Shown here: positions 1 through 22,332 of the stretch, in pieces
Position numbering within the stretch: position 1 is the stretch's first letter
Layout: each line of letters starts with the position of its first letter
From: Collimonas sp. OK242
Lineage (GTDB): Bacteria; Pseudomonadota; Gammaproteobacteria; Burkholderiales; Burkholderiaceae_D
Direction: 5' to 3'
Assembly: GCF_900107095.1 (NCBI RefSeq)
Contig: NZ_FNOR01000019.1
Span: 1 to 32,000 of the forward strand
DNA length: 32,000 nucleotides
Notes under the pieces: generated by a model
Told to the model about the DNA's origin: nothing
Databases searched by the model: none
The model's input: the letters and a program-made list of their open reading frames with translations, nothing else
Position numbers and translations under genes: made by a program

Positions 1-356
1 TTCAACAACGGTGGCCAGACCAAGGATTGGTCGTTCACTCAGACCGTGGCAGCCAGTACGCAAGTGCCCAGTACCAAGCATTGTTGACCAGCCACGGTTT
101 CATCTGCAGCATGAGCCGTAAAGGGAACTGCTGGGACAATGCAGTTGCCGAACGCTTCTTCCTGAATCTCAAGATGGAACGGGTGTGGCAGCGCCAATAT
201 GCCAATCACGCGGAGGCCAAGATCGATATCGCCGCCTACATCGTCGGCTTCTACAACAACGAACGTCTGCATTCAGTTCTGGGCAATCTGCCGCCCTCCG
301 TCTACGAACGGAACATGGCAGCAAAAAAACCTATCGCCGTGTCCGAATTTACTTGA
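1..356 (+). CDS. IS3-family transposase OrfB (DDE/rve integrase core), C-terminal part; 5' end lies outside the window
   Basis: The frame is open from the window edge. The product contains HSDRGSQYAS...NCWDNAVAERFF...FYNNERLHSxLGxxPP, typical of the IS3-family OrfB C-terminus. Stop codon at 354-356. Confidence 0.85.
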   Translation, partial: QQRWPDQGLVVHSDRGSQYASAQYQALLTSHGFICSMSRKGNCWDNAVAERFFLNLKMERVWQRQYANHAEAKIDIAAYIVGFYNNERLHSVLGNLPPSVYERNMAAKKPIAVSEFT

Positions 357-667
357 CCACTACACAGTGAGGATCGGCTAGCCATGGTCAACAATCCCGA
401 CTTTCTCGGTCTGGGTCGGATGTTCCCGGCGCATATACCTGCGTAACGGCTTCAAGGTACACTGCCGGCTGAATTTTTGTTTGGCGCCTAAACGCGAGGT
501 CGAATAAACTTCACCCCTTGGGAAATTTGGCTTGCATTCAAGGGAACGTTGCCTCCATGTAATCGCAGTTTCCTGGCTAATTCAGCGTGCCCTTAAGGGA
601 GTGGTGGCAGGAAGCACCAAACCAATGCTGCCGCGCCAACCGACACACCAACCGCAAGGAGATTACA

Positions 668-2902
<2,235 letters not shown>

Positions 2903-2914
2903 CGGCAAGGTAAT

Positions 2915-2942
2915 GCGGATCTGCATAATTATGCAGATCCGC
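2915..2942 (+). terminator. Perfect 12-bp-stem hairpin just after the icd stop (GCGGATCTGCAT-AATT-ATGCAGATCCGC)
   Basis: Inverted repeat read directly from the sequence, 13 nt after the stop. There is no clean T-run, so the terminator assignment is tentative. Confidence 0.5.
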
Positions 2943-3096
2943 ACCAGCTTTCCGGCGCAATTTCGCACTTCGCGTCGCAACGCTACGTGTTTTGGAATGG
3001 AAGCGGTTCGAATTATTGTGTGCGAAGTACAATTCCCGACTCCGTCTAGTGCGGAGTCGGGAGCGACTTTCTGTTTGCCGACGATGTCAGTGAAAT

Positions 3097-3303
3097 CTAG
3101 TCACTGGTAATCATCAGGCATCCGGGCATGACCCTGACACGTACGTTGGCATTGGGGTTGAAGCCTGTTTGCCTGATCCCGTTGCCATGCAGGCGAATCC
3201 AGAGTGTTTCAGGATCGTCGTCCTGATAGAAGGAGACGTTGAGCCGTTGTGCTGGGTTTACTATCGATGTGCTGCTATCTCGCGTACTATTGCGCTTAGC
3301 CAT
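3097..3303 (-). CDS. symE: SymE-like (AbrB/SpoVT-fold) type I toxin, ~68 aa
   Basis: The C-terminal LWIRLHGNGIRQTGFNPNANVRVRVMPGCLMIT resembles E. coli SymE [31 protein letters not shown]. The ATG at 3303 has GGAG 6 nt upstream; the ORF-track start at 3309 is a TTG. Confidence 0.6.
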   Translation of the reverse strand: MAKRNSTRDSSTSIVNPAQRLNVSFYQDDDPETLWIRLHGNGIRQTGFNPNANVRVRVMPGCLMITSD

Positions 3304-3698
3304 ATTCAACTCCGGTTTAGTTGCTTGTGGTTAGCGGGTCATGGGTGTTTCCGCACCTCTGACCCGCGTCTATTTACTGCTCTGCATAGCGCTCTTTACT
3401 CTGAACGCCTTCTTAAAAATAGCACGTGCGCATGTTTAAAGACATCATTATCGTGCGTCGATGGATTTTTAAGAAAATGCAGATACTTGGCGTTGTTGGC
3501 TTCGACTCAGCGGGTGCAGGCTTCTTTGGATTCTTTGCCGAAAAGAAGGTCATACCTATTAGCGGATAGGGGCAAAGGCGGTTGGTATTTCAATCACACA
3601 GAATATCTGGAGATGTTTCTGCTGTATGCTCGTTTTCGCAATCTATGAGAAACTAATCGACGGCAAATTTTACGGTCACACGATATGGAGATATAGCT

Positions 3699-3986
3699 AT
3701 GGGACGGGCAAAACAAGGGCAATTCGATCAAGAGGAAAAAACGAATCGAGCTTTAGCGTTATGCGTTGAAATTGGCGCCATCGAAATATGCGATTCGCAT
3801 GAGGATACATACATCGATACTCTAGAATATTCAGACTACGACGAATTGACAACAGCAATCCTAAAAAATAATCCTGACTCGATTGATTTCTTTGATAATC
3901 GAGACGACATGCTTGACTCTATAGGAGACGCTATGGGTTCTGCTGGGGATGAGTGTGGCTCTTGCGAAAAAAACCGTAATTCATAG
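3699..3986 (+). CDS. Hypothetical very acidic 95-aa protein (23 D/E vs 8 K/R by my count; 4 Cys as Cx8C and CxxC)
   Basis: An ORF with GGAGAT 8 nt upstream of the ATG and a hairpin plus T-run downstream. No family recognised. Confidence 0.55.
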   Translation: MGRAKQGQFDQEEKTNRALALCVEIGAIEICDSHEDTYIDTLEYSDYDELTTAILKNNPDSIDFFDNRDDMLDSIGDAMGSAGDECGSCEKNRNS

Positions 3987-4066
3987 ATTGCAAATTCGAA
4001 GACCAAACATAAAATGCAAACCTGCCTGTTATAACAGGATTAAAAGTAACGCTTAACTTGGACTTG

Positions 4067-4101
4067 CCAAAGGCTTTCGTTTCCGAGGGCCTTTGGTTTT
4101 T
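4067..4101 (+). terminator. Rho-independent terminator candidate downstream of the acidic-protein gene
   Basis: CCAAAGGC (4067-4074) pairs with GCCTTTGG (4089-4096), followed by TTTTT (4097-4101). Confidence 0.55.
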
Positions 4102-4373
4102 AGACTTATCAACAGTTGCGTGATAAGCCCATGAGCTGGAAAGGGTGGAATTGTAACTCGGCGTTGGATGTCATATATCCTTGGTCGGCATAGAGGTGAC
4201 TTTACACGACGCTGCCTGCTTCGCCGCTGCGTATCTAGCATTTCATTTTGCCCCCGACCCAATAGTCTCGTACATGGCAACATCGAACACCGAGTGTTCG
4301 ACTTGATACAACTTAACGTCTTTTTTCCTGAAATGCTATTGCGTTGTCTGCGGCCATTGAAATGACTACGCGA

Positions 4374-5501
4374 TTAAACAGTGGAGAGCGCTATCTCTGC
4401 TTCGCTTTCTGTCGCTGTCGATGCCAATTGTTGTATGAGCCGGGCCAGTTGGCGGGCTGTATAGCAAACGTGATGGTTCATGTCAGCTATGACCCACGTA
4501 GCAAGTGAACCGGGCCTAATTAGGCGTCTTGCGCAATCATCGATGTAAGTATCACCAAAGCTGCGTGTCCGACCCACATATCGAAAATCTGCGCTAACGC
4601 GACTGGCTAGATCGTGATACTGATCATAGTCCTTGATGGGGTGGTGGAGGGCATGGCCTCTAAAATAGATGATTTTATCGCCAGCGGTATAGCGAATTTT
4701 GGCGTTCACGTACCGGCTTGTTGTTTGATCACTGAAATCGGGATGTATGATGCCGTAATCCCCAAATGTTGGTTTGATTGTATCGGGCATGTCCCGCCAG
4801 AGAGCTGACCAAAGACGCAGTTCTTGGCGAATCACCTCGCCGACCTTATTTTTCTCGATACTACCCACGGTTTTCAGTGCGGAAGAACCGGCAATTACTA
4901 TTGATCTATAACCGGCGATGTTCGGGTTGTGAAAGAGAAAAGAAACTATGTTCTCTGCTAGGTTCGATGTGTCGTCCCCATCTATGTGTCGCAAGTCTAA
5001 AAGTAAATCAATTTTGTTTTGTGGCAGCCGCATCTGAGCGGTGCGTTCGATAATTTGCGCCCAGACATCATCGAAGAGATATTCAGCTAGATCGTCACGA
5101 GACAAGCGAAAGCAAAATCCTTTATTGAAATCCCGAGCAATCACGCCGAGCGCATCCCACAAATCATCATTTCGTTCGAATCCATACGCCGGAGTCACGG
5201 AGCGTCCGAATGCTTTTAATAGCGCGAATCCATGAAGGGTAGCGTTTGTGCCGTCTGAGATCGTCGCGTCCGGCATCAAACCGTGGAAATCTACGAAAAT
5301 CTCACCAAGCGGCAAATGCTTTCGAATGTACTCGCAGAGTTTGAAGACGTGCTCCTCTACCAGTGGAGCCTTGGGATTGATTGGCATCGCTTCGATGAAC
5401 GGTTTCATCAGTTGACGAACATCATTGTTGACCCTGCCAACGGCCATCAAATCATTTTTTTTGCCCTTGACCAGCGGCACATAAACTGAGCGACTATTCA
5501 T
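4374..5501 (-). CDS. 375-aa protein, tentatively Beta_protein (PF14350)/sce7725-like; third gene of the higB operon
   Basis: AGGAG lies 6 nt upstream of the ATG, which is 29 nt after the upstream stop. The N-terminal YVPLVKGKKNDLMAV...KPFIEAMP matches my recollection of the 'beta family protein' N-terminal signature. The family call is from memory and unverified. Confidence 0.5.
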   Translation of the reverse strand: MNSRSVYVPLVKGKKNDLMAVGRVNNDVRQLMKPFIEAMPINPKAPLVEEHVFKLCEYIRKHLPLGEIFVDFHGLMPDATISDGTNATLHGFALLKAFGRSVTPAYGFERNDDLWDALGVIARDFNKGFCFRLSRDDLAEYLFDDVWAQIIERTAQMRLPQNKIDLLLDLRHIDGDDTSNLAENIVSFLFHNPNIAGYRSIVIAGSSALKTVGSIEKNKVGEVIRQELRLWSALWRDMPDTIKPTFGDYGIIHPDFSDQTTSRYVNAKIRYTAGDKIIYFRGHALHHPIKDYDQYHDLASRVSADFRYVGRTRSFGDTYIDDCARRLIRPGSLATWVIADMNHHVCYTARQLARLIQQLASTATESEAEIALSTV

Positions 5502-5530
5502 CGATATCTCCTGCTTACGTCAACAAGATT

Positions 5531-6748
5531 TCATTGAAAATGCTGTTGTACCAATCCCTGCTCTAAAAATTCACGAAAATGCTCGTAGTGACCGCTCTCG
5601 AACTGAATTCGTCCAGCCACAATTGCTGGGTGAATATGCAGACTGTCCGCAAGTTCTTGAATGCTTTGATTTGTAGGGGCGAGTCTAGCCGACGAACGCT
5701 CCCAAACGGCACGGCGAATAAATGAATCGCGGGCTATACGATTCGCTTCATTCTCTTTTTGTTCGCTCTTCTCAGTACTCGCAATTCGTTCAATGCGATC
5801 AATAAACGCCTCGTCGGCAGTATTCAAGTGTTTCCACACGTGCGCGACCTCGTGCATCAATGTGAACCAAAAATAGTCAGTTCGATCAATTCGCAGCGTC
5901 AGACCAATCACCGGGGTGCCTCGCTCAGACAGCATCGCTGCGCCATCTATTACAGCGTTCGGTAGCCGAGGCTCGACGATCACTGCAATACCACACTTCG
6001 ATAGGAATTCAACTGCCAGGCGAGGGCCATTACTGAACCAACTTAGTCGAGCAAGGTCTCGCAACGTATCAGCAGAAATTTTTCCAGGATCAAATTTAGG
6101 TAAATCATTCTCGACATCCTTGGCACGCATCAAGACCCGGGCTGTCCATGCTAATGTCGAATAGTACGCCTTTTCATCGAGCTTATCGCCCCGAAACCTG
6201 CGTCTAAACATGATAGGCACTTGGCGGCTCGGAACAATCTGGGTAAGGAAAGAGCGAAGCCTCTCTTCTGCATTCTTCCCGCTAATTTTTGCTGCGCTGA
6301 ACCACCCACGCCTTTCCATCTCCCGATAGGGAAACCGTTTCCAGTCGATTTCTTCGACGTTGCTCTCACTGTCACGTGATGGAACGGGTTCTCTTCCGAT
6401 GAGAGCATCTGCTGGAATTCCAAGGCCGCTCGACAGAGCGCGAATCATTTGCACCGTTAGAGGTCGTTTGCCTCCTAACACTTCAGAAACCCGGCTTCTG
6501 CTGCCCAAGAGCGGAACGAGGTCCTTCTGTCGAAGTCCCTGTTCAGCCATTCGAAATTCAATAATCTCGATTGGATCAAGTGCCTCGAATTGATATGCAC
6601 GCTTTTCGTAATCTTCAATCAGGAGAGCAAGCAATGCGAGGCGATCACCTTCGGTCGATCCAATCGGTGGGTCAAGTGCAACAAGCTCCTCCGCTTCTAG
6701 CAGCGCAGTTTGATGTTCAGTTTCGCTTTTCAGAATTCTATATTCCAT
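5531..6748 (-). CDS. higA: HigA-type XRE HTH antitoxin domain fused to an ImmA/IrrE (M78, COG2856) zinc metallopeptidase domain (405 aa)
   Basis: The N-terminal ~120 aa align with E. coli HigA/YgjM (GSRSRVSEVLGGKRPLTVQMIRALSSGLGIPADALI vs GSKSMVSRVLSGKRKLTLEHAKKLATRFGISPALFI). The C-terminal domain carries HEVAH (nt 5840-5854) and a downstream ENEANRIARDSFI (ExxANxFA) motif. The ATG at 6748 lies 1 nt after the higB TGA. Confidence 0.85.
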   Translation of the reverse strand: MEYRILKSETEHQTALLEAEELVALDPPIGSTEGDRLALLALLIEDYEKRAYQFEALDPIEIIEFRMAEQGLRQKDLVPLLGSRSRVSEVLGGKRPLTVQMIRALSSGLGIPADALIGREPVPSRDSESNVEEIDWKRFPYREMERRGWFSAAKISGKNAEERLRSFLTQIVPSRQVPIMFRRRFRGDKLDEKAYYSTLAWTARVLMRAKDVENDLPKFDPGKISADTLRDLARLSWFSNGPRLAVEFLSKCGIAVIVEPRLPNAVIDGAAMLSERGTPVIGLTLRIDRTDYFWFTLMHEVAHVWKHLNTADEAFIDRIERIASTEKSEQKENEANRIARDSFIRRAVWERSSARLAPTNQSIQELADSLHIHPAIVAGRIQFESGHYEHFREFLEQGLVQQHFQ

Positions 6749-6749
6749 A

Positions 6750-7034
6750 TCAATGCATCCGCTTCGTGTACTGGTCATGTGTGCCCACCCATTTGATGGA
6801 TATCACCCCTGCGTTGTACGCCACCTGGGTTTCCAGGCGGTACTCGTTGCCGCGCACGTTAAAGATGACAATGTTTGTCGCTAAAAAGCTGGCAGACGGA
6901 TATCTGTCCTTGATATCGTGGCTAGTCTCCCAGCGACTGGCGCGTGCATCTGCGATCCAGTTCGATATCCACTTGCGGCAGTCTGCGTGCTTGTCGCAAA
7001 AGGCGGCAAGCACCCCAAGTCCAACAATCCTCAT
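6750..7034 (-). CDS. higB: HigB-type (PF09907, YgjN-like) mRNA interferase toxin, 94 aa
   Basis: FNVRGNEYRLE...IKWVGTHDQY parallels E. coli HigB FNVGGNELRVV...IREVMTHKEY. I take the start at MRIVGLG (ATG 7034) with GGGAG upstream; the longer ORF-track start at 7133 is unlikely. Confidence 0.85.
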   Translation of the reverse strand: MRIVGLGVLAAFCDKHADCRKWISNWIADARASRWETSHDIKDRYPSASFLATNIVIFNVRGNEYRLETQVAYNAGVISIKWVGTHDQYTKRMH

Positions 7035-7045
7035 TAAAACCAGGC

Positions 7046-7083
7046 TCCCATAAATGCTTCGAATCTCGAATCCCATTATGGGA
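7046..7083. promoter_or_regulatory. 8-bp inverted repeat TCCCATAA-N22-TTATGGGA overlapping the higB Shine-Dalgarno; candidate HigA operator or SD-sequestering hairpin
   Basis: The repeat arms are at 7046-7053 and 7076-7083, with an internal TCGAATCTCGAAT tandem. The proximal arm overlaps the GGGAG SD on the minus strand. Confidence 0.4.
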
Positions 7084-7458
7084 ACATATTTATTGTTACC
7101 GATTTGGGATCGGTCGTCAATGCCAAATTGCACCTAAGTAAGTGCCTTCCTGTCGCGACATGCCTGGTAATCGAGGAATTAGTGTTTAGCTAGAAACAGA
7201 CATGTGGTGATATTCATGCAGTGTGACAAAAACAGCGCCAAATGCATTTTCCAATTATGAGCATTGCTCAAGTGCAAATATTTCTCAGCTTGAATGCGAT
7301 AGTGCCAGCCCGTCCAACAAGGCATACTTTCTTTGCAATACTAATTCATCCGCACTTGCCCCACAGATTTTGTCCAACAAGTATATGTTTAAGATTTTCT
7401 TTACATATTCTATGAAGTACTAAATACTTGTTATGCATTATCAAAAAAGGGGAACAGA

Positions 7459-8019
7459 ATGGCAGCAGGGCAAACTATTGGATACTTGCGAGTATCGACC
7501 GCTGGGCAAAATACAGCGCGTCAACTTGACGGCATTGCGCTAGATCAAGTATTTGAAGACAAATGCAGTGGAAGCACGACGGATAGGCCACAACTTACGG
7601 CAATGCTCAAACATGCTCGATCAGGTGACACAGTCGTAGTGCATGAGATAAGCCGACTAGCTCGTAACACTGCCGATTTGCTAGACCTCGTAAAGCTGCT
7701 CACTACCAAGGGTGTGACTGTCTCGTTCATCAACGAGTCAATGACCTTTGCCGCTGGCAAAGATAACCCGATGAATACCATGTTCCTAACCATCATTGGA
7801 GCCATTAGTGCATTCGAGCTATCGATGATTAATGAGAGACGTGCTGAAGGCCAAGCCAAGGCGCGAGCTGAAGGTAAACACATGGGACGTACTGCGAAGC
7901 TGACAGCCGAGCAGATCGCAGTAATTAAGCAACGCGCTGCAACTGAGAGCAAGACCGCGCTGGCTGATGAGTATGGCGTATCCAGGGCAACGCTATATTC
8001 AGTATTGAAGGTGGCTTAG
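7459..8019 (+). CDS. Small serine recombinase (resolvase/invertase family), 186 aa
   Basis: An N-terminal IGYLRVSTAGQ catalytic-serine motif, a central SRLARN, and a C-terminal HTH (EYGVSRATLYSVLK). GGGGAA lies upstream of the ATG. Confidence 0.9.
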   Translation: MAAGQTIGYLRVSTAGQNTARQLDGIALDQVFEDKCSGSTTDRPQLTAMLKHARSGDTVVVHEISRLARNTADLLDLVKLLTTKGVTVSFINESMTFAAGKDNPMNTMFLTIIGAISAFELSMINERRAEGQAKARAEGKHMGRTAKLTAEQIAVIKQRAATESKTALADEYGVSRATLYSVLKVA

Positions 8020-8183
8020 GTCCATACAGCCGTCGGAATTGCATTAGGCCCATAGGCCGTCGTGAGTCGCACAAACCGGGAGCTGTACGATGCTTTTTTT
8101 CCTGACAATTCAACCCACAATTAAGGCTTGATTCTTACTATCTGATATACGATGTTATTCTTATTTGGCCAGAGAGGTCAGTC

Positions 8184-8408
8184 ATGAAAAAATCTGCAAG
8201 GATCAGAAACACAGTTTCCTATGTCAATGAGAAAAACCAACGCATCAATGTTCCGTTGGGACCGTGCGAGATTGAAGAATATCCTTCATCGAGCAAGATC
8301 GCTGCAAGAATTTGGTGGACTGACAAGGATGTGGAGAATATGACTGATCTCAGTGATGCGGAATGGGCGCACTACAAGTCCACAAAAGCATTCGTCATTG
8401 ATGATTAA
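8184..8408 (+). CDS. Hypothetical 74-aa protein upstream of the HEPN gene
   Basis: An ORF with GAGAGG 6 nt upstream of the ATG. No family recognised. Confidence 0.45.
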   Translation: MKKSARIRNTVSYVNEKNQRINVPLGPCEIEEYPSSSKIAARIWWTDKDVENMTDLSDAEWAHYKSTKAFVIDD

Positions 8409-8465
8409 TATGGTGCAGCCATTTGGAATTGCTCATGCAAACCAATCGTCGCCATTCGATACTCA

Positions 8466-9989
8466 ATGACGGCAGCATTTGAAATAACTAATACTGGGCA
8501 CGCGACCATGAAGAATTCCAAGAAAAATAATCTACAAAGCGCAGGCAATTTCACGATACCAAATGAACAAAAAGTATTTGGAAACCTTCATCTAAATGGC
8601 CGCAGCACAGTATTGCATCTTCAGCCCAAAGCTGAATTATCACCGCTCGATGAGAACAGCGTAATAAATGGAGAGTTGGGTGATCTCAGAAAAGTGAGCT
8701 GCTTACAGTGCGTCGTTGGATCTACAGGAGGTGGATTTCGAGGTGATGCTGGACAGTATCACTATGCTGACATATTCCCACATTTTGTCACTATAGGGGA
8801 TCAGCACTTAAAACCTGACGCGCACTCCATCAAAGCCGCTCATTTCACAACCAATGACGTGCCCTTGATTTTCAACGACTTTGGCGCATTCGGCCACTTT
8901 ACAGATTCAAACTCGCTAGTTAAATCTTTTGTTAAGGAAAATAGGCCCACGCACGAAATTGCACTTGGCGACTCACCCGAAATTTTCTATTTTTCAGGGA
9001 AAGATGAGGTTATTGCAGTAGATACACCTATCGGCCAGTTCCGCGTATCTCATCGACCAAGCTACCGTACGGGCGGTTCAAATGGTTCGCTCGTAAAGAA
9101 CAGCATGATTGTGACCTTGGAATACTCTGAGCCGGTCGTCCTTGGCGTGTGCATCGAGAGACTGATGTCGATCCACCGATTCCTTAGCCTCATGGCAGGT
9201 CGCAAGCAGTCAATCGAGTCAGTCTCTCTTGAGCTTGTCGGCCATTCCGTCAGCAAGCCGTCACTGCTTGAGTTGCACTGGTCTTTCGCGCCCAAACGGC
9301 CCAAAAAAGATGATAACGTGCCTCGTATAGGAGATATTCCTCTCGATGCAGTTCGTCGACCGGAGGAATTTAAAGTCGTTCTCAAAAATTGGCTAAGTCG
9401 AGAAGCCGAATGGCGGACAGCACGTATCCGATACGCAGGATGTATGGGAAAAGGAAACTCTTATAGTATTGATCGCATTGTCGCCGCCGCAAATATGTTT
9501 GATATTTTGCCCCAGGATGCGATGCCATCGGCATCTCCTCTTTCGGACGAACTTATCAAGGCACAGAAGGATTGTCGTGAAATTTTGAAGCGATTAGCTG
9601 TGGGAGTAGAGCGAGACAGCATACTTGGGGCACTAGGCAGGATGAACCAGCCTTCGCTCACGAAGAAAGTACTTCATCGAGTCGATATGGTGAATGTCCA
9701 TTTGGCCAGTCAATTTCCTGAGCTTGCGTCGGTTGCTACTACAGCGGTCAAGATCCGCAATTTCTTCGTGCATGGAAGCTCAGGTGGCTTTGATCCAGAG
9801 AAATTAGAGCCGTTACTGCCATTTCTCACGAATACTCTGGAATTTATCTTTGCCGCGTCTGATTTGATAAATGCCGGTTGGGATGCTCCAGCTTGGGGCA
9901 AAAGGCACCATAGTCGGGGGCATAATTTCATAAGTTTTCGGTGGGGTTACGAAAATCATCTTGCGCTTCTGAAGAAAGCTCTGTCGTAA
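8466..9989 (+). CDS. ApeA-like defence protein: ApeA-type N-terminal domain plus a C-terminal HEPN RNase-like domain
   Basis: An RNFFVH (Rx4H) HEPN motif at nt 9756-9773. The N-terminal GNFTIPNEQKVFGNLHLNGRSTVLHL resembles the ApeA_NTD1 opening (GxFWLP...GxLxf). The start is uncertain (8466 or the ATG at 8508). Confidence 0.6.
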   Translation: MTAAFEITNTGHATMKNSKKNNLQSAGNFTIPNEQKVFGNLHLNGRSTVLHLQPKAELSPLDENSVINGELGDLRKVSCLQCVVGSTGGGFRGDAGQYHYADIFPHFVTIGDQHLKPDAHSIKAAHFTTNDVPLIFNDFGAFGHFTDSNSLVKSFVKENRPTHEIALGDSPEIFYFSGKDEVIAVDTPIGQFRVSHRPSYRTGGSNGSLVKNSMIVTLEYSEPVVLGVCIERLMSIHRFLSLMAGRKQSIESVSLELVGHSVSKPSLLELHWSFAPKRPKKDDNVPRIGDIPLDAVRRPEEFKVVLKNWLSREAEWRTARIRYAGCMGKGNSYSIDRIVAAANMFDILPQDAMPSASPLSDELIKAQKDCREILKRLAVGVERDSILGALGRMNQPSLTKKVLHRVDMVNVHLASQFPELASVATTAVKIRNFFVHGSSGGFDPEKLEPLLPFLTNTLEFIFAASDLINAGWDAPAWGKRHHSRGHNFISFRWGYENHLALLKKALS

Positions 9990-10026
9990 CATCGCTACGA
10001 CGTTCGAAGTGACATGCGTCACGCTT

Positions 10027-10908
10027 CTATGCCGGTGCTGGACCGAATAGTCTCTCAAACAAGGCCAGAACATTCTTTCTCATATCTAACTGCTGCTGCA
10101 TGAACTCTGCCTCATCAGGCGACAAGTGAATTTCTTTCCTCAACGAGCTAATTAGCTGCACCATTGTTTTTTGTAAAGGTTCCATTTCCGCGATCAGTTT
10201 ACGCGAGTAGGCTAATTGTTGCGGGGCGAGAGCTTCTCTCATATGAGCCCGGTGTCTTTTGATTGCATCCACAAGATCATTTGCCTCTTTCCAAGCCTTT
10301 TGAACTGCCTCGATAACGTTAGCGTCTGCCCCTTGCTCAGCCAGATCGGCAAGTTTCACACTTTTGCGCAGCACCTCGCTTTCGGCGTGGATCAGCTTCT
10401 TATTTAGCTCCCAGACTGGATCCAGCGCTAATCGTAGAGGAAATGCAGATGCTAGCGCCAGCAAGTACACTTCTGACATTTTGTTAGCAAGGTCGCGCGA
10501 TAAATGAGCAGCTTCCGACTCTGCTACAAGCCAAATTTTTGAGTTGGCCTTTAAGAAAACCTGAAGGGCATCACTATCAGTGTTTCCGGAAAAATCTAAG
10601 GGCTTAAAAGGGAAACCACCAATAGCCCCAAGAGCCGCGTGTGTCTCCTCCACTGCTTTCGTGTAGACCTCACGCCTAATTGCTGCTTTTCGATCTTCCT
10701 CTTTTTGGATGGCGTCATGGGATCGCTGTTTGTCAGCTTCCAATTTATCGTGAACGTGTTGGTCTCTCAAACGCTTGTAGCTGCTATTGTTGGCAGAACG
10801 GATCCCAACATACGACATGCCGGATGCCAGCAAGGCACCAATTGCCCCCGACCAAATCACAGCCGGTATGCTATCAATCCAAACGAAAAACGCGTCCCAC
10901 AAATCCAT
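10027..10908 (-). CDS. Hypothetical membrane-anchored all-alpha protein (one N-terminal TM, then a ~250-aa helical/coiled-coil region)
   Basis: A hydrophobic segment IPAVIWSGAIGALLASGMSYVGI is followed by charged helical sequence. GAGGTG lies upstream of the ATG, 60 nt downstream of the DUF4145 gene on the same strand. Confidence 0.7.
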   Translation of the reverse strand: MDLWDAFFVWIDSIPAVIWSGAIGALLASGMSYVGIRSANNSSYKRLRDQHVHDKLEADKQRSHDAIQKEEDRKAAIRREVYTKAVEETHAALGAIGGFPFKPLDFSGNTDSDALQVFLKANSKIWLVAESEAAHLSRDLANKMSEVYLLALASAFPLRLALDPVWELNKKLIHAESEVLRKSVKLADLAEQGADANVIEAVQKAWKEANDLVDAIKRHRAHMREALAPQQLAYSRKLIAEMEPLQKTMVQLISSLRKEIHLSPDEAEFMQQQLDMRKNVLALFERLFGPAPA

Positions 10909-10968
10909 CTTTCACCTCAAATCATTGATGTAACTTGGAACACGTGGGCTTCGCGTAAGCTGAAGCTG

Positions 10969-11622
10969 TTATTGCTTCATCTCTGGTTTTCCAGCCGCTT
11001 TGAGTTTTGCATTTAGTGCATCTCGTCTTTGCTTTGCTTTTTCCGGTTGAACGTAGAAAAAATCAAATAACTCTTCCAAAACGTCTAAGTTCCACTCTGC
11101 CTCCTCGGGTTCCACGGACATAATTGACCCGCTGCTGGTGTCCTTCATTGGATGGGCGGCAAAATTACCTATATTGCGTACCGCGTCCAGATTGTCGGCA
11201 ATTGCAGGTGGCAATTTATTTGAATCTATAGCTGCCTTAATTGCTGGAGCAAGATTGTGTTGAGTGAAGCCATTCTCGTGCAACACGCCTTGAAGACAAC
11301 GCCGACTCAATGCAGCAGACGCTTTAGGGCTATCAGATAGTACAAGGCACGCTTCGTTAAAATCCTCTGCGAGATTTGCTGGCACCTCTGCCGGTGCCTT
11401 CGGCCTATTAGCCGCACGAGGATAGACTAATCGCATCGGTGTACCAATAATCCCGTTTCCTAACTGAGAGGATAGGAAAATTATCGCGTCATGGCAGGAT
11501 GGACATTCCATATGCGTCGCGGTCCAATATAAAGGTGCGCCGTGTTTTTCCCCAATTGCTGGATTAAACGTTGTTGTGTGAAAGCCTGGATGAATCTCAA
11601 TTTGGCAGTGCGGACATTGCAT
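10969..11622 (-). CDS. Zn-ribbon (CPHC...CPSC) plus DUF4145-like domain protein, 217 aa
   Basis: Cys pairs at residues 3/6 and 40/43. LDAVRNIGNFAAHP (nt 11152-11178 cover R149-H157) matches the conserved RxxGNxxAH signature I associate with DUF4145 (PF13643). AGGGG lies 6 nt upstream of the ATG. Confidence 0.7.
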   Translation of the reverse strand: MQCPHCQIEIHPGFHTTTFNPAIGEKHGAPLYWTATHMECPSCHDAIIFLSSQLGNGIIGTPMRLVYPRAANRPKAPAEVPANLAEDFNEACLVLSDSPKASAALSRRCLQGVLHENGFTQHNLAPAIKAAIDSNKLPPAIADNLDAVRNIGNFAAHPMKDTSSGSIMSVEPEEAEWNLDVLEELFDFFYVQPEKAKQRRDALNAKLKAAGKPEMKQ

Positions 11623-11745
11623 TGTTGGCCCCTAACAGAAAATGATTGTGCAGTTCATATAGTTTTTATTTATGCAAGTTAGAGTATCCGGAATACTGCC
11701 CAATTGCATCAATTTGCATCAAAATAATTCTCACCTGTCTTGCCA

Positions 11746-11773
11746 TTGCCATATTTCGCAAATCTCATATACT
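11746..11773 (+). promoter_or_regulatory. Sigma70-type promoter TTGCCA-N16-TATACT
   Basis: The -35 is at 11746-11751 and the -10 at 11768-11773. The -10 overlaps the LexA box. Confidence 0.55.
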
Positions 11774-11789
11774 GTACATTCATACAGTT
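11770..11789. promoter_or_regulatory. LexA (SOS) box TACTGTACATTCATACAGTT
   Basis: CTGT (11772-11775)-N8-ACAG (11784-11787) with TA/T flanks, a full match to the beta/gammaproteobacterial CTGT-N8-ACAG core. Confidence 0.7.
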
Positions 11790-11805
11790 GTTTGGGGTGG
11801 CAAAA

Positions 11806-11940
11806 ATGTTTGTGCGTGTCGAATGCCTCTGGGATGAGGGACGCCGATTAGAACGTGACGTATTGGCAGCACGCAAGAGAAATTGCATTTGTGGCGAACT
11901 GCGCCTAGAGCGTCAAAAGCATGAATATCTTGCGGAGTGA
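11806..11940 (+). CDS. 44-aa ORF (MFVRVECLWDEGRRLERDVLAARKRNCICGELRLERQKHEYLAE) downstream of the SOS promoter
   Basis: GGGGTGG lies 5 nt upstream of the ATG, which is 17 nt downstream of the LexA box. The product is charged and helical-looking with 3 Cys. It may instead be part of a non-coding RNA. Confidence 0.4.
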   Translation: MFVRVECLWDEGRRLERDVLAARKRNCICGELRLERQKHEYLAE

Positions 11941-12020
11941 ACTACTCTTGTGGCACGTCTAATGAATGGGGACTTTGACTCACTGTCACCGTTACAAGAT
12001 GCTGTAGATTAGATCGGTGG

Positions 12021-12040
12021 ATAGCGTTTTAAAACGCTAT
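12021..12040 (+). terminator. Perfect 20-bp palindrome ATAGCGTTTTAAAACGCTAT, then TTGAGTCTT; likely end of the SOS-controlled transcript
   Basis: Read directly from the sequence, 80 nt after the micro-ORF stop. Confidence 0.4.
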
Positions 12041-12152
12041 TTGAGTCTTAAATTAATCCGCTGATTTCGCAATCAATTACGATTTTGGTTCAGCCTATGG
12101 CTGTATCTGATACGTCTTGAAAATTTGGAGATTCCGGCGAATGCGGGAACCT

Positions 12153-12899
12153 TTATTCTGATTGCAATGTTTTTTGAGCGAATCGTATTTGCACAAAACT
12201 TTGCCCGGGAAATATGCTTTGCAACGCGATTTGCATTTGGTTATCCATTTTCTTCGTCGTGGCGATGCCCTCGTCCACTTGCCTGATGAATTGATCGGTC
12301 AACGCGGCCAGCTTGGCATACTCAGCTCTAAAAATCGTCTGCAATGATTCGTGCGTCAGATTAGGGATGTTCTTTGAAAGCACGGCCTTGCGCAAATCAT
12401 CGTGCGCGACGGCTCGCAGTTCAACGGTGTTGAGCAGAGCTTGATGATGCCAGTCAAGGACTCGCAACTCCACCAGAGCCATTGAGCACAGCTCGCCGTC
12501 TTGATCCAGAAAATAGTTGAGGCTGTCGAAATCGAAATGGAGCGATTGCATCATGCCGGGCTGCGGCGAGTCCATGAGGAATGCACGGTCTTCGCTTTGC
12601 CTGATGTCTTCGTGATCTATGAAGAATTGACGCAAATTGTCGAATACGTTGAACATGGTTGCAATTGTGAACAACGCTTTGTTCGCTGACGAAATACGTA
12701 TATTGCGCTCGGCCTCATCGCGTGTTTTCCGCTCCGCGCTGAACGCAGCCCATCCGCCTGCCCACGCCGCTACAAATGTTCCGAAGACTGTGACGATGAG
12801 ATCGACGTATCTATCATGATGCGTGTAGATCAGCACTCCGGAAAAAATGAATGCGGCGAGAATGACTACGATGAACGGACGGTTGAATTTGGACAGCAT
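12153..12899 (-). CDS. Hypothetical protein with an N-terminal 2-TM hairpin plus a ~190-aa soluble helical domain (248 aa from MLSKFNRP)
   Basis: Two hydrophobic helices (FIVVILAAFIFSGVLIY; LIVTVFGTFVAAWAGGWAAF). I take the start at 12899 because the ORF-track start (13001) overlaps the upstream gene. Confidence 0.6.
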   Translation of the reverse strand: MLSKFNRPFIVVILAAFIFSGVLIYTHHDRYVDLIVTVFGTFVAAWAGGWAAFSAERKTRDEAERNIRISSANKALFTIATMFNVFDNLRQFFIDHEDIRQSEDRAFLMDSPQPGMMQSLHFDFDSLNYFLDQDGELCSMALVELRVLDWHHQALLNTVELRAVAHDDLRKAVLSKNIPNLTHESLQTIFRAEYAKLAALTDQFIRQVDEGIATTKKMDNQMQIALQSIFPGQSFVQIRFAQKTLQSE

Positions 12900-12952
12900 C
12901 GCGCTTTTCCATGAAATGGGGGCAGTGCACAGTATGAAAATGGGTTGAATGT

Positions 12953-13582
12953 CTATGCGTCGGTGCGCGGCTTCGATTCTCGAAATCCACGAACGATCCA
13001 ACGGACGACGGAAGCGAAAAGCTCAGAAAACATCCATAACAGCAATGGAAGCGCGATGCCGACAAGTAGGAAGCGGGACCAACGAATTTCCGATGTCTTC
13101 GGAATGCCATCCTGTTTCGACCAATAGATTTCCCAAGGTTTGATCTCTCTCTCCGTCGACAGATCGAATCCTTTCTTATCGCCACTCTGCTTGGCTTGCT
13201 GATTCTTGGGAACGAGAGATGCGGCCGAGCGGGGGGCGCGCAGCAAGGCTTCCAATCGGGCCGCGAGTTCCGGCGTCAACTTGTTGGGCATGTCCACTAT
13301 GGTGCCGTCAGGCATCTGCACGGGGACAGCGGACTGTCCCTCTTCCTTTTCTCGGCGAACAGCGAATTCAATTTCTTCTTGGTCCGAAAGCCGGACGTTG
13401 CGGCCATCCGGCAAAGTGGCCGTGTCGCCTTTGACCAATGTCCCGACAGGAATACCTTGATAAACGAAGTAGCCGTCGTTCTTGCTGAAATAATCCGTTC
13501 CCGCGATTATCGACGCGATGCCGATCCACAGTATCGACATCGCCAAGGCGATGCGCCTCCACCCATTTAAGCGGACAACCAT
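12953..13582 (-). CDS. Hypothetical membrane protein with N- and C-terminal TM helices flanking a ~150-aa charged domain (209 aa from MVVRLNGW)
   Basis: GGGAGA lies 5 nt upstream of the ATG at 13582. TM segments are IALAMSILWIGIASIIAG and FLLVGIALPLLLWMFSELFASVV. Confidence 0.6.
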   Translation of the reverse strand: MVVRLNGWRRIALAMSILWIGIASIIAGTDYFSKNDGYFVYQGIPVGTLVKGDTATLPDGRNVRLSDQEEIEFAVRREKEEGQSAVPVQMPDGTIVDMPNKLTPELAARLEALLRAPRSAASLVPKNQQAKQSGDKKGFDLSTEREIKPWEIYWSKQDGIPKTSEIRWSRFLLVGIALPLLLWMFSELFASVVRWIVRGFRESKPRTDA

Positions 13583-13964
13583 ATTTTTCTCCCGTCGATA
13601 TACCGCTGGAGTAGACAGGCTATCACAACAGGCAAATTCGATGCCTCCATTCAATCAAAGCGGCAATTAGAGACTCTATGGATCAGATCGGGGAATTGTT
13701 TGGCGAGTGGCTTCGGTCACTCGCCATTTTTATCGGGCAAACGAAAAGTTTAAAAAATTGCCGGAGATTTTTGAGGCTACGGGTGAGCAAAATTAAAAAA
13801 TTGCCCGTTAATAAGTGTACCCGCCACTTTCAAAGCGGACGGCTAACTAACTTTGGTCTCGATGGTGGCGAGTTAGGATTTTCTGACCGAATAAGTTCTT
13901 GGTTTTTGCGACTCAAAGAAATGAAGCGGGTCGATACAGACCATCCATTTTGTACCCTGAGAGG

Positions 13965-13999
13965 CAAAAAATGAAAAAGGCCAATCCGAAGATTGGCCT
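13965..13999 (-). terminator. Rho-independent terminator of tRNA-Pro
   Basis: The minus strand reads AGGCCAATC-TTCG-GATTGGCCT followed by TTTTCATTTTTG, starting 17 nt after the tRNA 3' end. Confidence 0.75.
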
Positions 14000-14015
14000 A
14001 AGTCATTGATTCAAT

Positions 14016-14092
14016 TGGTCGGGGCGAGAAGATTCGAACTTCCGACCCCTTGCACCCCATGCAAGTACGCTACCAGGCTGCGCTACGCCCCG
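14016..14092 (-). tRNA. tRNA-Pro (anticodon GGG), 77 nt with encoded CCA
   Basis: The minus strand reads CGGGGCG-TA-GCGC-AGCCTGGTA-GCGT-A-CTTGC-ATGGGGT-GCAAG-GGGTC-GGAAG-TTCGAAT-CTTCT-CGCCCCG-ACCA. This is a cloverleaf with anticodon loop AU-GGG-GU. A TATAAT at 14103-14108 (minus strand) is a likely -10. Confidence 0.9.
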
Positions 14093-14244
14093 ACAAGCCT
14101 GCTATTATATCAGAGCAAAATTGCTTTGTTTCCAAGGCAATACATAAAATTTTAACTGTTTGTTCGCCAGACGATGACGCCGTTCATTGCAGTTTGCAAT
14201 GAACCGTCAGATCGCCCGGCCGGCAATCCTCATTCGATAATCTT

Positions 14245-15366
14245 ATGCCAATAAAAATTAGCCAGCAGTTTGACGCCGCCGCCATCGAAGTGTTGCGCGC
14301 CGATAGTCCTCAGCAGATTGAATTGAACATCCGTAGCGACTCGCATGCGGATTTCACGCAATGGTTCTATTTCCGCTTGCAAGGTGCGCGCGGCGAGGCT
14401 TGCCGCATCCGTTTCATGAATGCCGGCGCCGCTACCTATCCCAAGGGCTGGGAAAACTATCAGGCGGTGGCCAGCTACGATCGCGAGACCTGGTTCCGGG
14501 TGCCGACCAGTTTTGACTGCGAGGTGATGACCATTGCCCATACGCCGGAACGCGATAGCGTGTATTACGCCTATTTCGAACCGTATTCGTGGGAGCGTCA
14601 TCTGGCCTTGCTGGGGCGCGCAGAGAAATCGCCTTTGGCGCGGGTGCAGGATCTGGGCGGCACGGTTGACGGTCGCGATATGAATCTGCTGGTGATCGGC
14701 AATCCGGCCGCGGCCAAGAAGGTGTGGGTGATTGCGCGCCAGCATCCGGGTGAAACCATGGCGGAATGGTTTGTCGAGGGCATGGTCGATGCATTGCTGG
14801 ACCGTGCCAATCCGCTGGCGAACAAGGTGCTGCAGCATGCGGTGTTCTACATCGTGCCGAACATGAATCCGGATGGTTCCGTGCGCGGCAACCTGCGGAC
14901 CAACGCTGCCGGCGCCAACCTGAATCGCGAGTGGATGACGCCGTCGCTGGAGCGCAGCCCCGAAGTATTTGTGGTCAAGAACAAGATTCACGAAACCGGC
15001 TGCGATCTGTTCCTGGACGTGCATGGCGATGAGGCTTTGCCGTATGTGTTTGTGGCCGGCTCGGAAATGCTGGAAGATTTTAGTCCGCAGCAGGGCGTGG
15101 AGCAGCAAAAATTCATAGCCGATTTCTTGCGCGCCAGCCCGGATTTCCAGACTGAATACGGCTATGCGGCGAGCAAGTACAGCAGCGATGTGCTGACCCT
15201 GGCGTCGAAATATGTCGGCCATACCTTCAAGTGCATATCGCTGACCCTGGAGTTGCCGTTCAAGGATAACGTCAACCTGCCGGATGCGCAGGTCGGCTGG
15301 GATGGCGCTCGCAGTGCGCGTTTGGGGGCGGTGGTGTTGCAGCCGATATTGCGGGCGTTTGAATAG
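14245..15366 (+). CDS. M14-family zinc carboxypeptidase (cytosolic carboxypeptidase-like, with an N-terminal beta domain)
   Basis: ARQHPGETMAEW (HxxE zinc motif), NPDG...R.N..G.NLNR and LDVHGDE motifs. Confidence 0.85.
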   Translation: MPIKISQQFDAAAIEVLRADSPQQIELNIRSDSHADFTQWFYFRLQGARGEACRIRFMNAGAATYPKGWENYQAVASYDRETWFRVPTSFDCEVMTIAHTPERDSVYYAYFEPYSWERHLALLGRAEKSPLARVQDLGGTVDGRDMNLLVIGNPAAAKKVWVIARQHPGETMAEWFVEGMVDALLDRANPLANKVLQHAVFYIVPNMNPDGSVRGNLRTNAAGANLNREWMTPSLERSPEVFVVKNKIHETGCDLFLDVHGDEALPYVFVAGSEMLEDFSPQQGVEQQKFIADFLRASPDFQTEYGYAASKYSSDVLTLASKYVGHTFKCISLTLELPFKDNVNLPDAQVGWDGARSARLGAVVLQPILRAFE

Positions 15367-15403
15367 GCCGTACTGCATGCGGTCTTGGTGCATGTTGTGA
15401 AAG

Positions 15404-15437
15404 AGCCGGGCATGTCCAACATGCCCGGCTTTTTTTT
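15404..15437 (+). terminator. Rho-independent terminator (AGCCGGGCATG-TCCAA-CATGCCCGGCT plus T8); may act bidirectionally with the convergent pirin gene
   Basis: An 11-bp stem and a T-run, read directly from the sequence. Confidence 0.85.
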
Positions 15438-15469
15438 GCGCCGTAGTTCTGCTGAGCCGGCAGCGACTG

Positions 15470-16342
15470 CTAGGCCTGTTCAGTTATCTGCGCAAAGCGC
15501 CCGCTGTTGAAGTCGACGATCGCCTGGGCGATTTCTTCCTGGCTGTTCATGACGAACGGGCCATGGCCGACGATCGCTTCATCGATCGGCTCGCCGCTAA
15601 GCACCAGCACTACCGCGTCGTTGTTGGCTTCGATATCGACGCTGTTGCCGTCGTTGTCGAGCAACGCCATTTGCGCTTCGCGCGCCACGGTCTCGCCATT
15701 GATCAGCACGGTTCCGTGCAACACCACCAGCGCAGAATGCCAGCCGGCGGGCAAGGACAGTCTGGTGTTGCCGCCCTGGTTCAAGCGCATATCCCACACG
15801 TTCATCGGTGTGAAAGTACGCGCCGGACCGGCATGGCCGTCGTATTCGCCGGCAATCACCCTTACTGTGCCGGCGCCGTCAGGCAAGGCCACAACAGGAA
15901 TGTCGCGATCTGCGATGGCTTGATAACCGGGCGCTGTCATCTTGTCCTTCGCCGGCAGGTTCACCCACAGCTGCACCATTTCGAGCGTGCCGCCGGAGCG
16001 CGTGAACGCTTCGGAGTGGAACTCCTCATGCAGGATGCCGCTGCCTGCTGTCATCCATTGCACGTCGCCGGGGCCGATAGTGCCGCCATTGCCGGTCGAG
16101 TCGCGGTGCGTCACTTCGCCCTTGTAGACGATGGTGACGGTTTCGAAGCCGCGATGCGGATGCGAGCCGACGCCGCGTGGGCGGGTAGCAGGCCTGAACT
16201 CGGCCGGACCGGCGTAATCGAGCAGCAGGAAAGGACTTAGTTGCTTGCCGTGGCTGGTGTAAGAAAACATCGAACGAGCAGGAAAACCGTCGCCGACCCA
16301 ATGTTGGCGAGGTGCGCTGTAGATGCCGAGGACTTTTTTCAT
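15470..16342 (-). CDS. Pirin-family (bicupin) protein
   Basis: HPHRGFETVTIVYKGEVTHRDS..G.IGPGDVQWMTAGSGILHEE is the canonical pirin N-terminal cupin signature. Confidence 0.9.
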   Translation of the reverse strand: MKKVLGIYSAPRQHWVGDGFPARSMFSYTSHGKQLSPFLLLDYAGPAEFRPATRPRGVGSHPHRGFETVTIVYKGEVTHRDSTGNGGTIGPGDVQWMTAGSGILHEEFHSEAFTRSGGTLEMVQLWVNLPAKDKMTAPGYQAIADRDIPVVALPDGAGTVRVIAGEYDGHAGPARTFTPMNVWDMRLNQGGNTRLSLPAGWHSALVVLHGTVLINGETVAREAQMALLDNDGNSVDIEANNDAVVLVLSGEPIDEAIVGHGPFVMNSQEEIAQAIVDFNSGRFAQITEQA

Positions 16343-16476
16343 GATCGATTCCTTGTGGTGGTTGCATAGTTGTTGCAGGTAGAAGATTAAATCAAGGACA
16401 ATGGCTGCGGTAGTCTGTGGAATTTGCCATCAGCGTCCTATTTTATGAACGATGAAATGTTTGCGCGGGAATTGTT

Positions 16477-17382
16477 ATGCAGGATTTGAACGATCTCTAC
16501 TATTACGTTCAGGTGGTCGACCATGGCGGCTTTGCGCCGGCCGGACGGGCCCTGGGCATGCCGAAGTCCAAGCTGAGCCGGCGCCTGGCGTTATTGGAGG
16601 AGCGCTTGGGCGTCAGGCTGATCCAGCGTACTACCCGGCAATTTTCCGTGACAGAAGTCGGGCAGTCGTATTACGAGCACTGCAAGGCGATGCTGGTGGA
16701 GGCAGAGGCTGCGCAAGACGCGGTCGAGCTGACGCGGGGCGAACCGCGCGGCATTGTGCGCCTGACTTGCCCGGTGGCTTTGCTGCATGCGAATGTGGAC
16801 GTGATGCTGGCAGATTTCATGGCGGCCAACCCGCGTGTGACGGTGCTGCTGGAGGCGAGCAATCGCCGGGTTGACGTGGTGGCCGAGGCGGTGGATATTG
16901 CGATCCGGGTACGGCCGCCGCCGATTCCGGATAGCGAGCTGGTGCTGCGGGTACTGGCTGAACGCAGTCAATGCCTGGTCGCCAGTCCGCTGCTGCTTAA
17001 GGGGCGCTCGCTGCCGGCCTCGCCTGCCGATTTAAACGGCTGGCCGAGCCTGGGGCTGGGGACAGGGCAGCAAAATCATATATGGACATTGTTCGGCCCG
17101 GATGGCGCCAAGGCGGCGATTCATCACACGCCGCGTTTTGTCACCGGCGATATGGTGGCATTGTTGCGGGCGGCAGTGGCTGGCGTCGGCATTGTGCAAT
17201 TGCCGACCATGATGATACGCGAACAGGTAGCGCAAGGCACGCTGTTGCATGTGCTGGATGACTGGCGGCCGCGCCACGAAATCATCCATGTGGTATTCCC
17301 GTCGCGGCGCGGCTTGCTGCCCTTGGTGCGTACCCTGATCGATTATCTGGTACAGCGTTTCCGGGCACTGGAAGAAGATTGA
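16477..17382 (+). CDS. LysR-family transcriptional regulator, divergent from the pirin gene
   Basis: An N-terminal LysR HTH (FAPAGRALGMPKSKLSRRLALLEERLGVRLIQRTTR) plus a C-terminal substrate-binding domain. Confidence 0.9.
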   Translation: MQDLNDLYYYVQVVDHGGFAPAGRALGMPKSKLSRRLALLEERLGVRLIQRTTRQFSVTEVGQSYYEHCKAMLVEAEAAQDAVELTRGEPRGIVRLTCPVALLHANVDVMLADFMAANPRVTVLLEASNRRVDVVAEAVDIAIRVRPPPIPDSELVLRVLAERSQCLVASPLLLKGRSLPASPADLNGWPSLGLGTGQQNHIWTLFGPDGAKAAIHHTPRFVTGDMVALLRAAVAGVGIVQLPTMMIREQVAQGTLLHVLDDWRPRHEIIHVVFPSRRGLLPLVRTLIDYLVQRFRALEED

Positions 17383-17406
17383 GATGATTGAAGGGCGTGC
17401 GCCGGC

Positions 17407-18660: not shown

Positions 18661-18941
18661 AGTAGATAAGGTAAGGAGCTGACAACATAGTCAAAATCTT
18701 ACTGCGCGACCGTAGCGGATGCATGCATCCGATGACCGGCAACTGAGACGCTCACATATTCATGGATGAATATGCTCCGCTTTTCTGCGCTGCCTTCTGG
18801 CCTACGACCGCTTGCTGAGAGTTTTCAAAGACTCTGAGGCAGGAAGACTGCAAGATCCTATTGTAGTGGATTTAACGGTATGTTGAATAACTACCGTAGA
18901 TGAATGGCAACAATCCCTTGATTGAGGCCGAAAACGAGAAA

Positions 18942-18966
18942 CGCCGGCATGGCCGGCGCTTTTTTT
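18942..18966. terminator. Bidirectional terminator-like hairpin CGCCGGC-ATG-GCCGGCG with a T7 run on the plus strand and TTTCTCGTTTTC on the minus strand (acnA side)
   Basis: Read directly from the sequence. A second 13-bp-stem hairpin at 19004-19040 lies immediately after the acnA stop. Confidence 0.6.
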
Positions 18967-19047
18967 GTACATTCTTGAGTGACTTTGTCGGTGCATCCGA
19001 CTGCCAGCCGGCCGCCCATGCAGAAGGGGCGGCCGGCTGGTGTGTCG

Positions 19048-21759
<2,712 letters not shown>

Positions 21760-21784
21760 GATTTCTCCTGGGGTTTTAATTTAA

Positions 21785-22282: not shown

Positions 22283-22332
22283 TTTCATTGCTCCGTAATG
22301 CATCCCGTTATCTCGGAAAAGGCGGGCTGCGG

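Follow-up and report, generated by a model that had tools for sequence, protein, structure and literature searches.

A PD-lambda-2-type operon with a complete HigB motif in a genomic island of Collimonas sp. OK242, probably an abortive-infection defence system

A functional selection yielded PD-lambda-2 from Escherichia coli ECOR42 (Vassallo et al. 2022, PMC9519451). It was described as a HigB-like protein (A), a HigA-like Xre helix-turn-helix (HTH) protein with a C-terminal peptidase (B) and a relative of a P4 phage antitoxin (C), with components in the Pfam families PF09907, PF06114 and PF14350 (PMC9519451). In E. coli, the system protects against lambda-vir by abortive infection (Abi). B is toxic when over-expressed alone, co-expression of A rescues the cells from this toxicity, and C is dispensable for neutralisation but required for defence (PMC9519451). 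PD-lambda-2 is a named system in both PADLOC and DefenseFinder, and no mechanistic follow-up on it was found in our literature searches. Here, we analyse a three-gene locus in a stretch of 32,000 nucleotides (nt) from Collimonas sp. OK242 (the window; contig NZ_FNOR01000019.1, positions 1 to 32,000), to whose numbering all coordinates refer. It is likely that this locus is an anti-phage operon of the PD-lambda-2 type, acting by Abi, that it lies in a small defence island, and that it works by the mechanism proposed below.

Other described systems share parts of this design. Makarova et al. (2009) flagged RelE and PIN toxins linked to Xre-COG2856 fusions, and proposed a protease-controlled circuit. 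The Mycobacterium tuberculosis antitoxin VapB52, an Xre-IrrE-peptidase protein, cleaves itself on single-stranded DNA (ssDNA) and frees the toxin VapC52 (2026, PMC13273310). An 'FR motif' is the proposed site of this self-cleavage (PMC13273310). DNA damage or ssDNA activates the peptidases of the protease-repressor pairs ImmA/ImmR, IrrE(PprI)/DdrO and CapP/CapH. In the P4 gop-beta-cII locus, beta is thought to neutralise Gop.

The sequence details of the operon were re-read on the minus strand of the window, where three genes lie head to tail. Gene A (7034-6750, minus strand) encodes a HigB-fold protein of 94 amino acids (aa) with the full GNEYR...GTHDQY motif. Gene B (6748-5531, minus strand) encodes a 405-aa protein in which a HigA-like N-terminal domain and HTH are fused to an IrrE/CapP-type Zn-peptidase. 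Gene C (5501-4374, minus strand) encodes a 375-aa beta-family protein (PF14350), predicted to be a triosephosphate isomerase (TIM) barrel. A preliminary description, made from the letters of this DNA, had read the operon as three genes, and this structure was borne out in its details. The stop codon of A (6752-6750) is followed by a single T and then by the ATG of B (6748-6746), which confirmed the TGA-T-ATG coupling. The HEVAH codons do lie at 5854-5840 on the minus strand, with ENEANRIA after them, and the gap between B and C is indeed 29 nt (5530-5502), with the ribosome-binding site of C, AGGAG, at 5512-5508 on the minus strand. The start of A, which had been placed near 7083, was corrected to the ATG at 7034 on the basis of the PADLOC profile alignment, the alignment of homologues and an independently made gene call for this contig. 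At position 7083, the core palindrome of an operator-like site (7084-7070) begins. The same three lines of evidence set the start of B at 6748 and not at the upstream ATG of a longer open reading frame (ORF), at 6778. The independent gene call gave proteins of 94, 405 and 375 aa.

All three proteins matched PADLOC profiles for PD-lambda-2. Protein A matched PD-Lambda-2_A (PDLC03981; E = 2.5e-44) from positions 2-94 against 1-93 of 94, B matched PD-Lambda-2_B (E = 4.1e-157) from positions 1-405 against 1-397 of 402, and C matched PD-Lambda-2_C (PDLC03983; E = 2.6e-184) at full length. A search of NCBIfam gave no match for A, B or C. The characteristics of each family member were also found. The first gene encodes a PF09907 protein in the range of ~85-95 aa, the second a protein of ~400 aa with an N-terminal HigA/Xre HTH and an ImmA/IrrE HEXXH peptidase, and the third a PF14350 protein directly downstream on the same strand. 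The preliminary description had thus named the three domain families correctly (HigB; HigA HTH with M78 peptidase; PF14350), and its guess of an abortive-infection defence system agrees with the PADLOC membership and with the Abi shown for E. coli PD-lambda-2 (PMC9519451). It had also taken the system to be undescribed, which does not hold, as the same triad of PF09907, Xre/PF06114 and PF14350 is PD-lambda-2 (PMC9519451; PADLOC matches). Standard defence finders already annotate the triad under this name, so it does not merit pursuit as a discovery. The locus adds a further copy of a known system whose mechanism is still unsolved. The roles first proposed, a HigB toxin held by a HigA-peptidase antitoxin, are contradicted for the E. 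coli prototype, in which B is toxic and A neutralises (PMC9519451).

Relatives of B are abundant, with more than 2700 homologues at E <= 1e-20, of which the closest (99% identity) is a protein of Collimonas sp. PA-H2. A synteny scan was performed with one genome per species, covering 80 loci with B homologues of 43-92% identity. A beta gene was located 17-140 nt downstream of B in 79 of the 80 genomes, and the sole exception was cut by the end of a contig. Every locus with room for it carried a HigB-like ORF of 84-95 aa directly upstream of B. This synteny bears out the supposition of the preliminary description that C is part of the system; a third gene that was not conserved with the pair would have counted against that description, and the scan found the opposite. 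Nucleotide searches with the operon against E. coli genomes (megablast, blastn) and plasmids returned nothing, so the E. coli relatives were reached via a Salmonella locus (L051). On plasmids, the relatives of B had 38-40% identity and formed two-gene pairs of HigB and HTH-peptidase without C. These were found in Acinetobacter (L001), Paraburkholderia (L002) and Limnohabitans (L003), and are of the class flagged by Makarova et al. (2009). Their B homologues scored 497 bits on the PADLOC PD-Lambda-2_B model; this model alone therefore cannot tell triads from pairs.

The Pfam family HigB_toxin (PF09907) matched protein A at 3e-22, covering profile positions 3-73 of 74, and the alignment of A to E. 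coli K-12 HigB (5IFG) spans the motif. To define subtypes, 82 A proteins were aligned and their motifs counted. Twenty of these (from the window, 17 further triads and two plasmid pairs) were canonical, with the motif FNVxGNxYR...W(I/V)GTHxxY in the segment that aligns to E. coli K-12 HigB. The remaining 62 were shorter and had neither motif element. The A proteins of E. coli strain C and PS2C both fell into this motif-less group, and their Pfam match ended at profile position 65 of 74. Protein C co-varied with A, as its identity to the window C was 34-83% at loci with canonical A and 22-30% at the rest. PADLOC has separate sub-models for both subtypes under one system name. We take GNxYR...GTHxxY to be the catalytic motif, as in ribonucleases (RNases) of the RelE family. 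The motif of E. coli K-12 HigB is complete in the window A, with its catalytic role drawn from that analogy, and is absent from the compared E. coli loci. The HigB of the window may thus have kept its RNase activity.

In ECOR42, the operon has a length of 2625 bp (PMC9519451). This is exactly the length of the PS2C-type operon, and a search of 5426 complete E. coli genomes found no copy of the canonical subtype. From the equal length, and from the occurrence of a sole subtype in complete E. coli genomes, we infer that ECOR42 carries the degenerate-HigB subtype and that the published polarity was measured on it. Several points weigh against carrying the PD-lambda-2 reading over to the window. 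ECOR42 is assigned to its subtype through operon length and subtype occurrence. The experiments behind both Abi and polarity all come from the E. coli system, so that the behaviour of the other subtype is argued by analogy. Identity between the window and E. coli proteins is limited to 22-25% for A, 46-47% for B and 25-26% for C. In addition, no cysteine-switch loop of the kind seen in CapP and VapB52 was apparent in B, which has no Cys between HEVAH (residues 299-303) and ENEAN (residues 332-336).

For protein B, the Pfam matches to HTH_3 (1.5e-4) and Peptidase_M78 (2.6e-4) were both just under the gathering scores. Both domains were confirmed by fold comparison. An AlphaFold model of B (predicted local distance difference test, pLDDT, 80) was searched with Foldseek. 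Residues 1-120 matched the whole of E. coli K-12 HigA (6KMQ_B, 29% identity), and the C-terminal half matched CapP (7T5T), PprI (8SLM/8SLN) and IrrE (3DTI). The Xre/HigA-type HTH spans residues ~59-116 (6401..6574, minus strand), as determined by Pfam (HTH_3, residues 64-115), by phmmer (residues 59-113, to E. coli HigA 5IFG_B) and by the helices of the model (residues 59-116). Residues H299, E300 and H303 of the HEVAH zinc-binding/catalytic motif (5840..5854, minus strand) were invariant in 40 B homologues, and B carries the HEXXH of an M78-family metallopeptidase. The single Cys of B, C252, was not conserved among these homologues. B is larger than the small HTH antitoxin (about 100-140 aa) of canonical type II HigBA, which has no enzymatic domain and belongs to a two-gene module, whereas B carries a peptidase and its operon a conserved third gene. 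Its HTH is fused to the peptidase, and the operon contains no separate Xre gene whose product could be the repressor substrate, as in the IrrE, ImmA and CapP pairs.

A nearly invariant FR dipeptide in the B homologues, F65-R66 of B (window 6551-6556), was considered as a cleavage site similar to that of VapB52. In the model of B, however, this dipeptide sits within the first HTH helix and outside any linker, so its equivalence to the VapB52 site is doubtful and it was retained only as a weak lead. The model points to a more natural candidate target in the linker at residues 120-131, which is poorly conserved and of low confidence.

Protein C matched Beta_protein (PF14350; 7e-51) at full length. 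The preliminary description had proposed a structure search with the product of 4374-5501. The model (pLDDT 92; predicted template modelling score, pTM, 0.92) is an alternating beta/alpha barrel and gave a clear prediction of a TIM barrel. The matches in the PDB, in turn, were only generic TIM barrels (template modelling, TM, score about 0.35-0.5), so the chemistry of C cannot be named. Searched against the PDB with phmmer, C had only chance matches to ribosomal proteins. Forty-three residues of C were invariant, many of them charged or polar and placed at strand ends (K12, E37, D71, D137, S206, D248, K268, R270 and H283). Strand ends are the usual place of TIM-barrel active sites. The model suggests that C is an enzyme, and the confident barrel, with its conserved strand-end residues, is a lead to the function of this essential third protein. 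By hhalign, C is also a distant homologue of P4 beta (95.7%, E 8.9e-9), and the PADLOC 'beta' model matched it at 2.7e-6. No model for gop or cII (sce7726 family) matched the operon or the 8 neighbouring ORFs.

A consensus scan upstream of A identified a -35 box, TTGACG (7115..7120, minus strand), and a -10 box, AACAAT (7092..7097, minus strand), separated by a 17-nt spacer. In an upstream alignment of five loci, TTGAC was invariant and the -10 box was invariant in 5/5. The ribosome-binding site of A, read as GGGAG (7045..7049, minus strand), coincides with a GGAG-type element that is conserved in the same alignment. Among loci whose B is 67-92% identical, the upstream regions could not otherwise be aligned, yet they had TTGAC-N17-AACAAT and a palindrome in common. 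The palindrome, TTCCC-N5-GGGAA, was sought in the 160 nt upstream of A, with at most 2 mismatches in 10 positions. It was present in 82/82 loci of both subtypes, with at least two copies in 70/82, while any such site occurred in only 68 of 571 control windows inside the operons (12%). Two copies are found in the window. Operator-like site O1 (ATCCCAAATCGGTAA; 7096..7110, minus strand; 2 mismatches) overlaps the spacer and the -10 box, and O2 (TTCCCATAATGGGAT; 7070..7084, minus strand; 1 mismatch) lies just downstream of the -10 box. By analogy with HigA-type autoregulation, TTCCC-N5-GGGAA is probably the operator bound by the HTH of B. This family-wide palindrome offers a handle on regulation. 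At the other end of the operon, a perfect 7-bp hairpin, CGAACAC-TCG-GTGTTCG (4284-4300, minus strand), occurs ~75 nt past the stop codon of C. It has no T-run, and may mark the end of the transcript or stabilise it.

In the mechanism that we propose, one autoregulated sigma-70 promoter would drive A, B and C, with the HTH of B probably bound to the two TTCCC-N5-GGGAA operators. A would bind the HigA-like N-terminal domain of B, and the two would hold each other in check in an inert A:B complex; this binding mode is suggested by the fold match to HigBA. An infection signal that needs C would then switch on the IrrE/CapP-type peptidase of B. Plausibly, ssDNA would serve as a co-signal to the peptidase, as it does for CapP, PprI and VapB52. 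The complex would fall apart, and the cell would arrest or die before phage release, consistent with the Abi shown in E. coli. Because A keeps the complete HigB motif, released A of the window subtype would be expected to cleave ribosome-bound mRNA, in addition to the damage done by the peptidase of B. Judged from the motif, such an extra HigB RNase arm is likely in this subtype.

The strongest alternative is that the classical polarity applies, although we think this rather unlikely. HigB would be the sole toxin, and B an antitoxin and autorepressor that cuts itself on a phage or DNA-damage signal and so frees the RNase, with C as a sensor or helper. The whole HigB motif in the window A, with its match to profile positions 3-73 of 74, would fit this scheme, as would the match of the N-terminal domain of B to the HigA of the HigBA complex. 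The closest two-gene plasmid relatives (L001 and L003) consist of a canonical HigB and an HTH-peptidase with no C, similar to ordinary toxin-antitoxin (TA) modules, and VapB52 provides a precedent for self-cleavage on ssDNA with release of a toxin (PMC13273310). The circuit is, moreover, the one predicted by Makarova et al. (2009), so a self-destructing antitoxin is no longer a new idea. However, in the only PD-lambda-2 that has been tested, B was toxic and A neutralised it (PMC9519451). The window B is 46-47% identical to E. coli B and has the same invariant active site, and therefore probably shares its toxic potential. B also lacks a cysteine switch, and the model places its conserved FR (65-66) in the first helix of the HTH and not in a linker.

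A further reading, which we advance only tentatively, concerns the origin of the subtypes. The canonical-HigB subtype would be an ancestral and mechanistically distinct PD-lambda-2, in which a HigB RNase and an IrrE-type peptidase form a two-toxin module held by mutual inhibition, and the TIM-barrel protein C turns a phage cue into the release of both. The E. coli subtype would be derived, with its HigB decayed to a pure antitoxin. If true, this decay would explain the 'unexpected' polarity reported there. The existence of subtypes with intact and degenerate HigB provides a direct test of why a toxin-like protein acted as an antitoxin in E. coli.

It is improbable that C is the executioner, with A:B serving only as a protease switch that cleaves or derepresses the TIM-barrel protein, which then damages the cell or phage, for example via a nucleotide or sugar-phosphate metabolite. 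The requirement for C in defence (PMC9519451), the confident prediction of a TIM barrel, and the invariant charged or polar residues at strand ends, in the usual pattern of TIM-barrel active sites, would all agree with such a role. On the other hand, toxicity of C is unreported and its deletion is tolerated, B is toxic already without C (PMC9519451), the homologous P4 beta appears to act as an antidote to Gop and not as a toxin, and the fold matches in the PDB are generic. A function other than defence in this host, as an addiction module stabilising a plasmid or island or as a stress regulator that merely resembles PD-lambda-2, is highly improbable: two-gene relatives do occur on plasmids beside other TA pairs, and the operon does sit within a horizontally acquired island, but the locus is a full-length member of an experimentally validated defence family, its neighbours are other defence-type genes, and its third gene is strictly conserved, which an addiction module would not need.

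The operon is located in a segment of low G+C content (44-50% over 3000-14000, compared with 55-61% in the flanks, 1-3000 and 14000-24000). This small defence island, of ~11 kb, lies between a monomeric isocitrate dehydrogenase gene (587-2902) and tRNA-Pro(GGG) (14016-14092, minus strand), whose 3' end faces the island. A search of Rfam found only this tRNA. Beyond the operon, the island encodes an ApeA-like HEPN protein (8466-9989, plus strand; ApeA_NTD1 and HEPN_Apea), which matched no PADLOC model, and a DUF4145 protein (10969-11622, minus strand) that matched PADLOC PD-T7-4 at 3.2e-20. At the isocitrate dehydrogenase side, its edge carries a SymE_toxin-like ORF of 68 aa (3097-3303, minus strand; a precomputed Pfam match on the Logan contig) and a lambda Ea8.5-like ORF of 95 aa (3699-3986, plus strand; 1.1e-5, just under the gathering score). 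The ORFs at 10027-10908, 12153-13001 and 12953-13654 had no family match. No integrase gene was found in the island, nor was an att-type direct repeat of the tRNA-Pro 3' end, which was sought to delimit it. A 16-nt direct repeat, TTGCCCCCGACCCAAT, occurs with one mismatch at 4248-4263 and 10842-10857, 6.6 kb apart inside the island, and is probably due to chance.

A small serine recombinase/resolvase (7459-8019, plus strand) is encoded divergently from the operon. Its relatives (35-39% identity) adjoin the operons of E. coli C, E. coli PS2C, Salmonella, Enterobacter and Buttiauxella, with coordinates of 2938-3513 in locus L084 and 2211-2774 in locus L085. The recombinase may mark a small mobile cassette. 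Flanking inverted repeats of a convincing kind were not found. As a serine recombinase adjoins the operon here and in two E. coli copies, an invertible promoter, or phase-variation switch, was considered. This was rejected, since the only inverted repeat around the intergenic region was one of 14 nt at 86% (7173-7186 and 7337-7350) and, of the 85 loci compared (the 80 from genomes together with the plasmid and E. coli loci), only 6 had a recombinase close by.

Comparison with known systems places the locus closest to PD-lambda-2. The P4 gop-beta-cII locus resembles it in the distant homology of C to beta and in that both loci protect against lambda, PD-lambda-2 as shown by the E. coli system; it differs in that C of PD-lambda-2 is not needed for neutralisation. 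The protease-repressor pairs ImmA/ImmR, IrrE(PprI)/DdrO and CapP/CapH similarly couple an M78/IrrE-family peptidase fold to an Xre HTH. In B, however, HTH and peptidase are fused and no GAF domain or Cys switch was detected, and the prototype PD-lambda-2 ends in death or arrest of the cell and not in the derepression of a regulon. VapBC52 likewise combines a partner-binding Xre-type domain and an IrrE/CapP-like HEXXH peptidase in one polypeptide, encoded beside the gene of an RNase-fold toxin. That toxin, however, is a PIN domain and not HigB, and there is no beta-family third gene. The cysteine-switch loop and C-terminal toxin-occluding domain of VapB52 were not seen in B, and sequence similarity between the two proteins was undetectable.

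HigBA of E. coli K-12 (PDB 5IFG, 6KML and 6KMQ) shares with the locus a HigB-fold first gene with a common C-terminal motif, the toxin-first gene order, and the match of the first 120 residues of B to the whole of HigA (29% identity). It differs in that B has about 285 extra residues with the Zn-peptidase, in that a third gene is obligatory for function of the PD-lambda-2 family, and in that the polarity of toxicity is reversed in the tested relative. From E. coli PD-lambda-2 the window differs in its host, a betaproteobacterium, in the sub-models of PADLOC that match best (PDLC03981/03983 for the window, PDLC03980/03984 for E. coli), and in an A protein that retains GNxYR...GTHxxY, which the E. 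coli A proteins lack. The likenesses extend over the whole operon: the window has the same gene order and tight spacing, the same Pfam families (PF09907, HTH with PF06114, and PF14350), proteins of similar lengths (about 90, about 402 and 375 aa), the invariant HEXXH, and an upstream operator palindrome of the same type.

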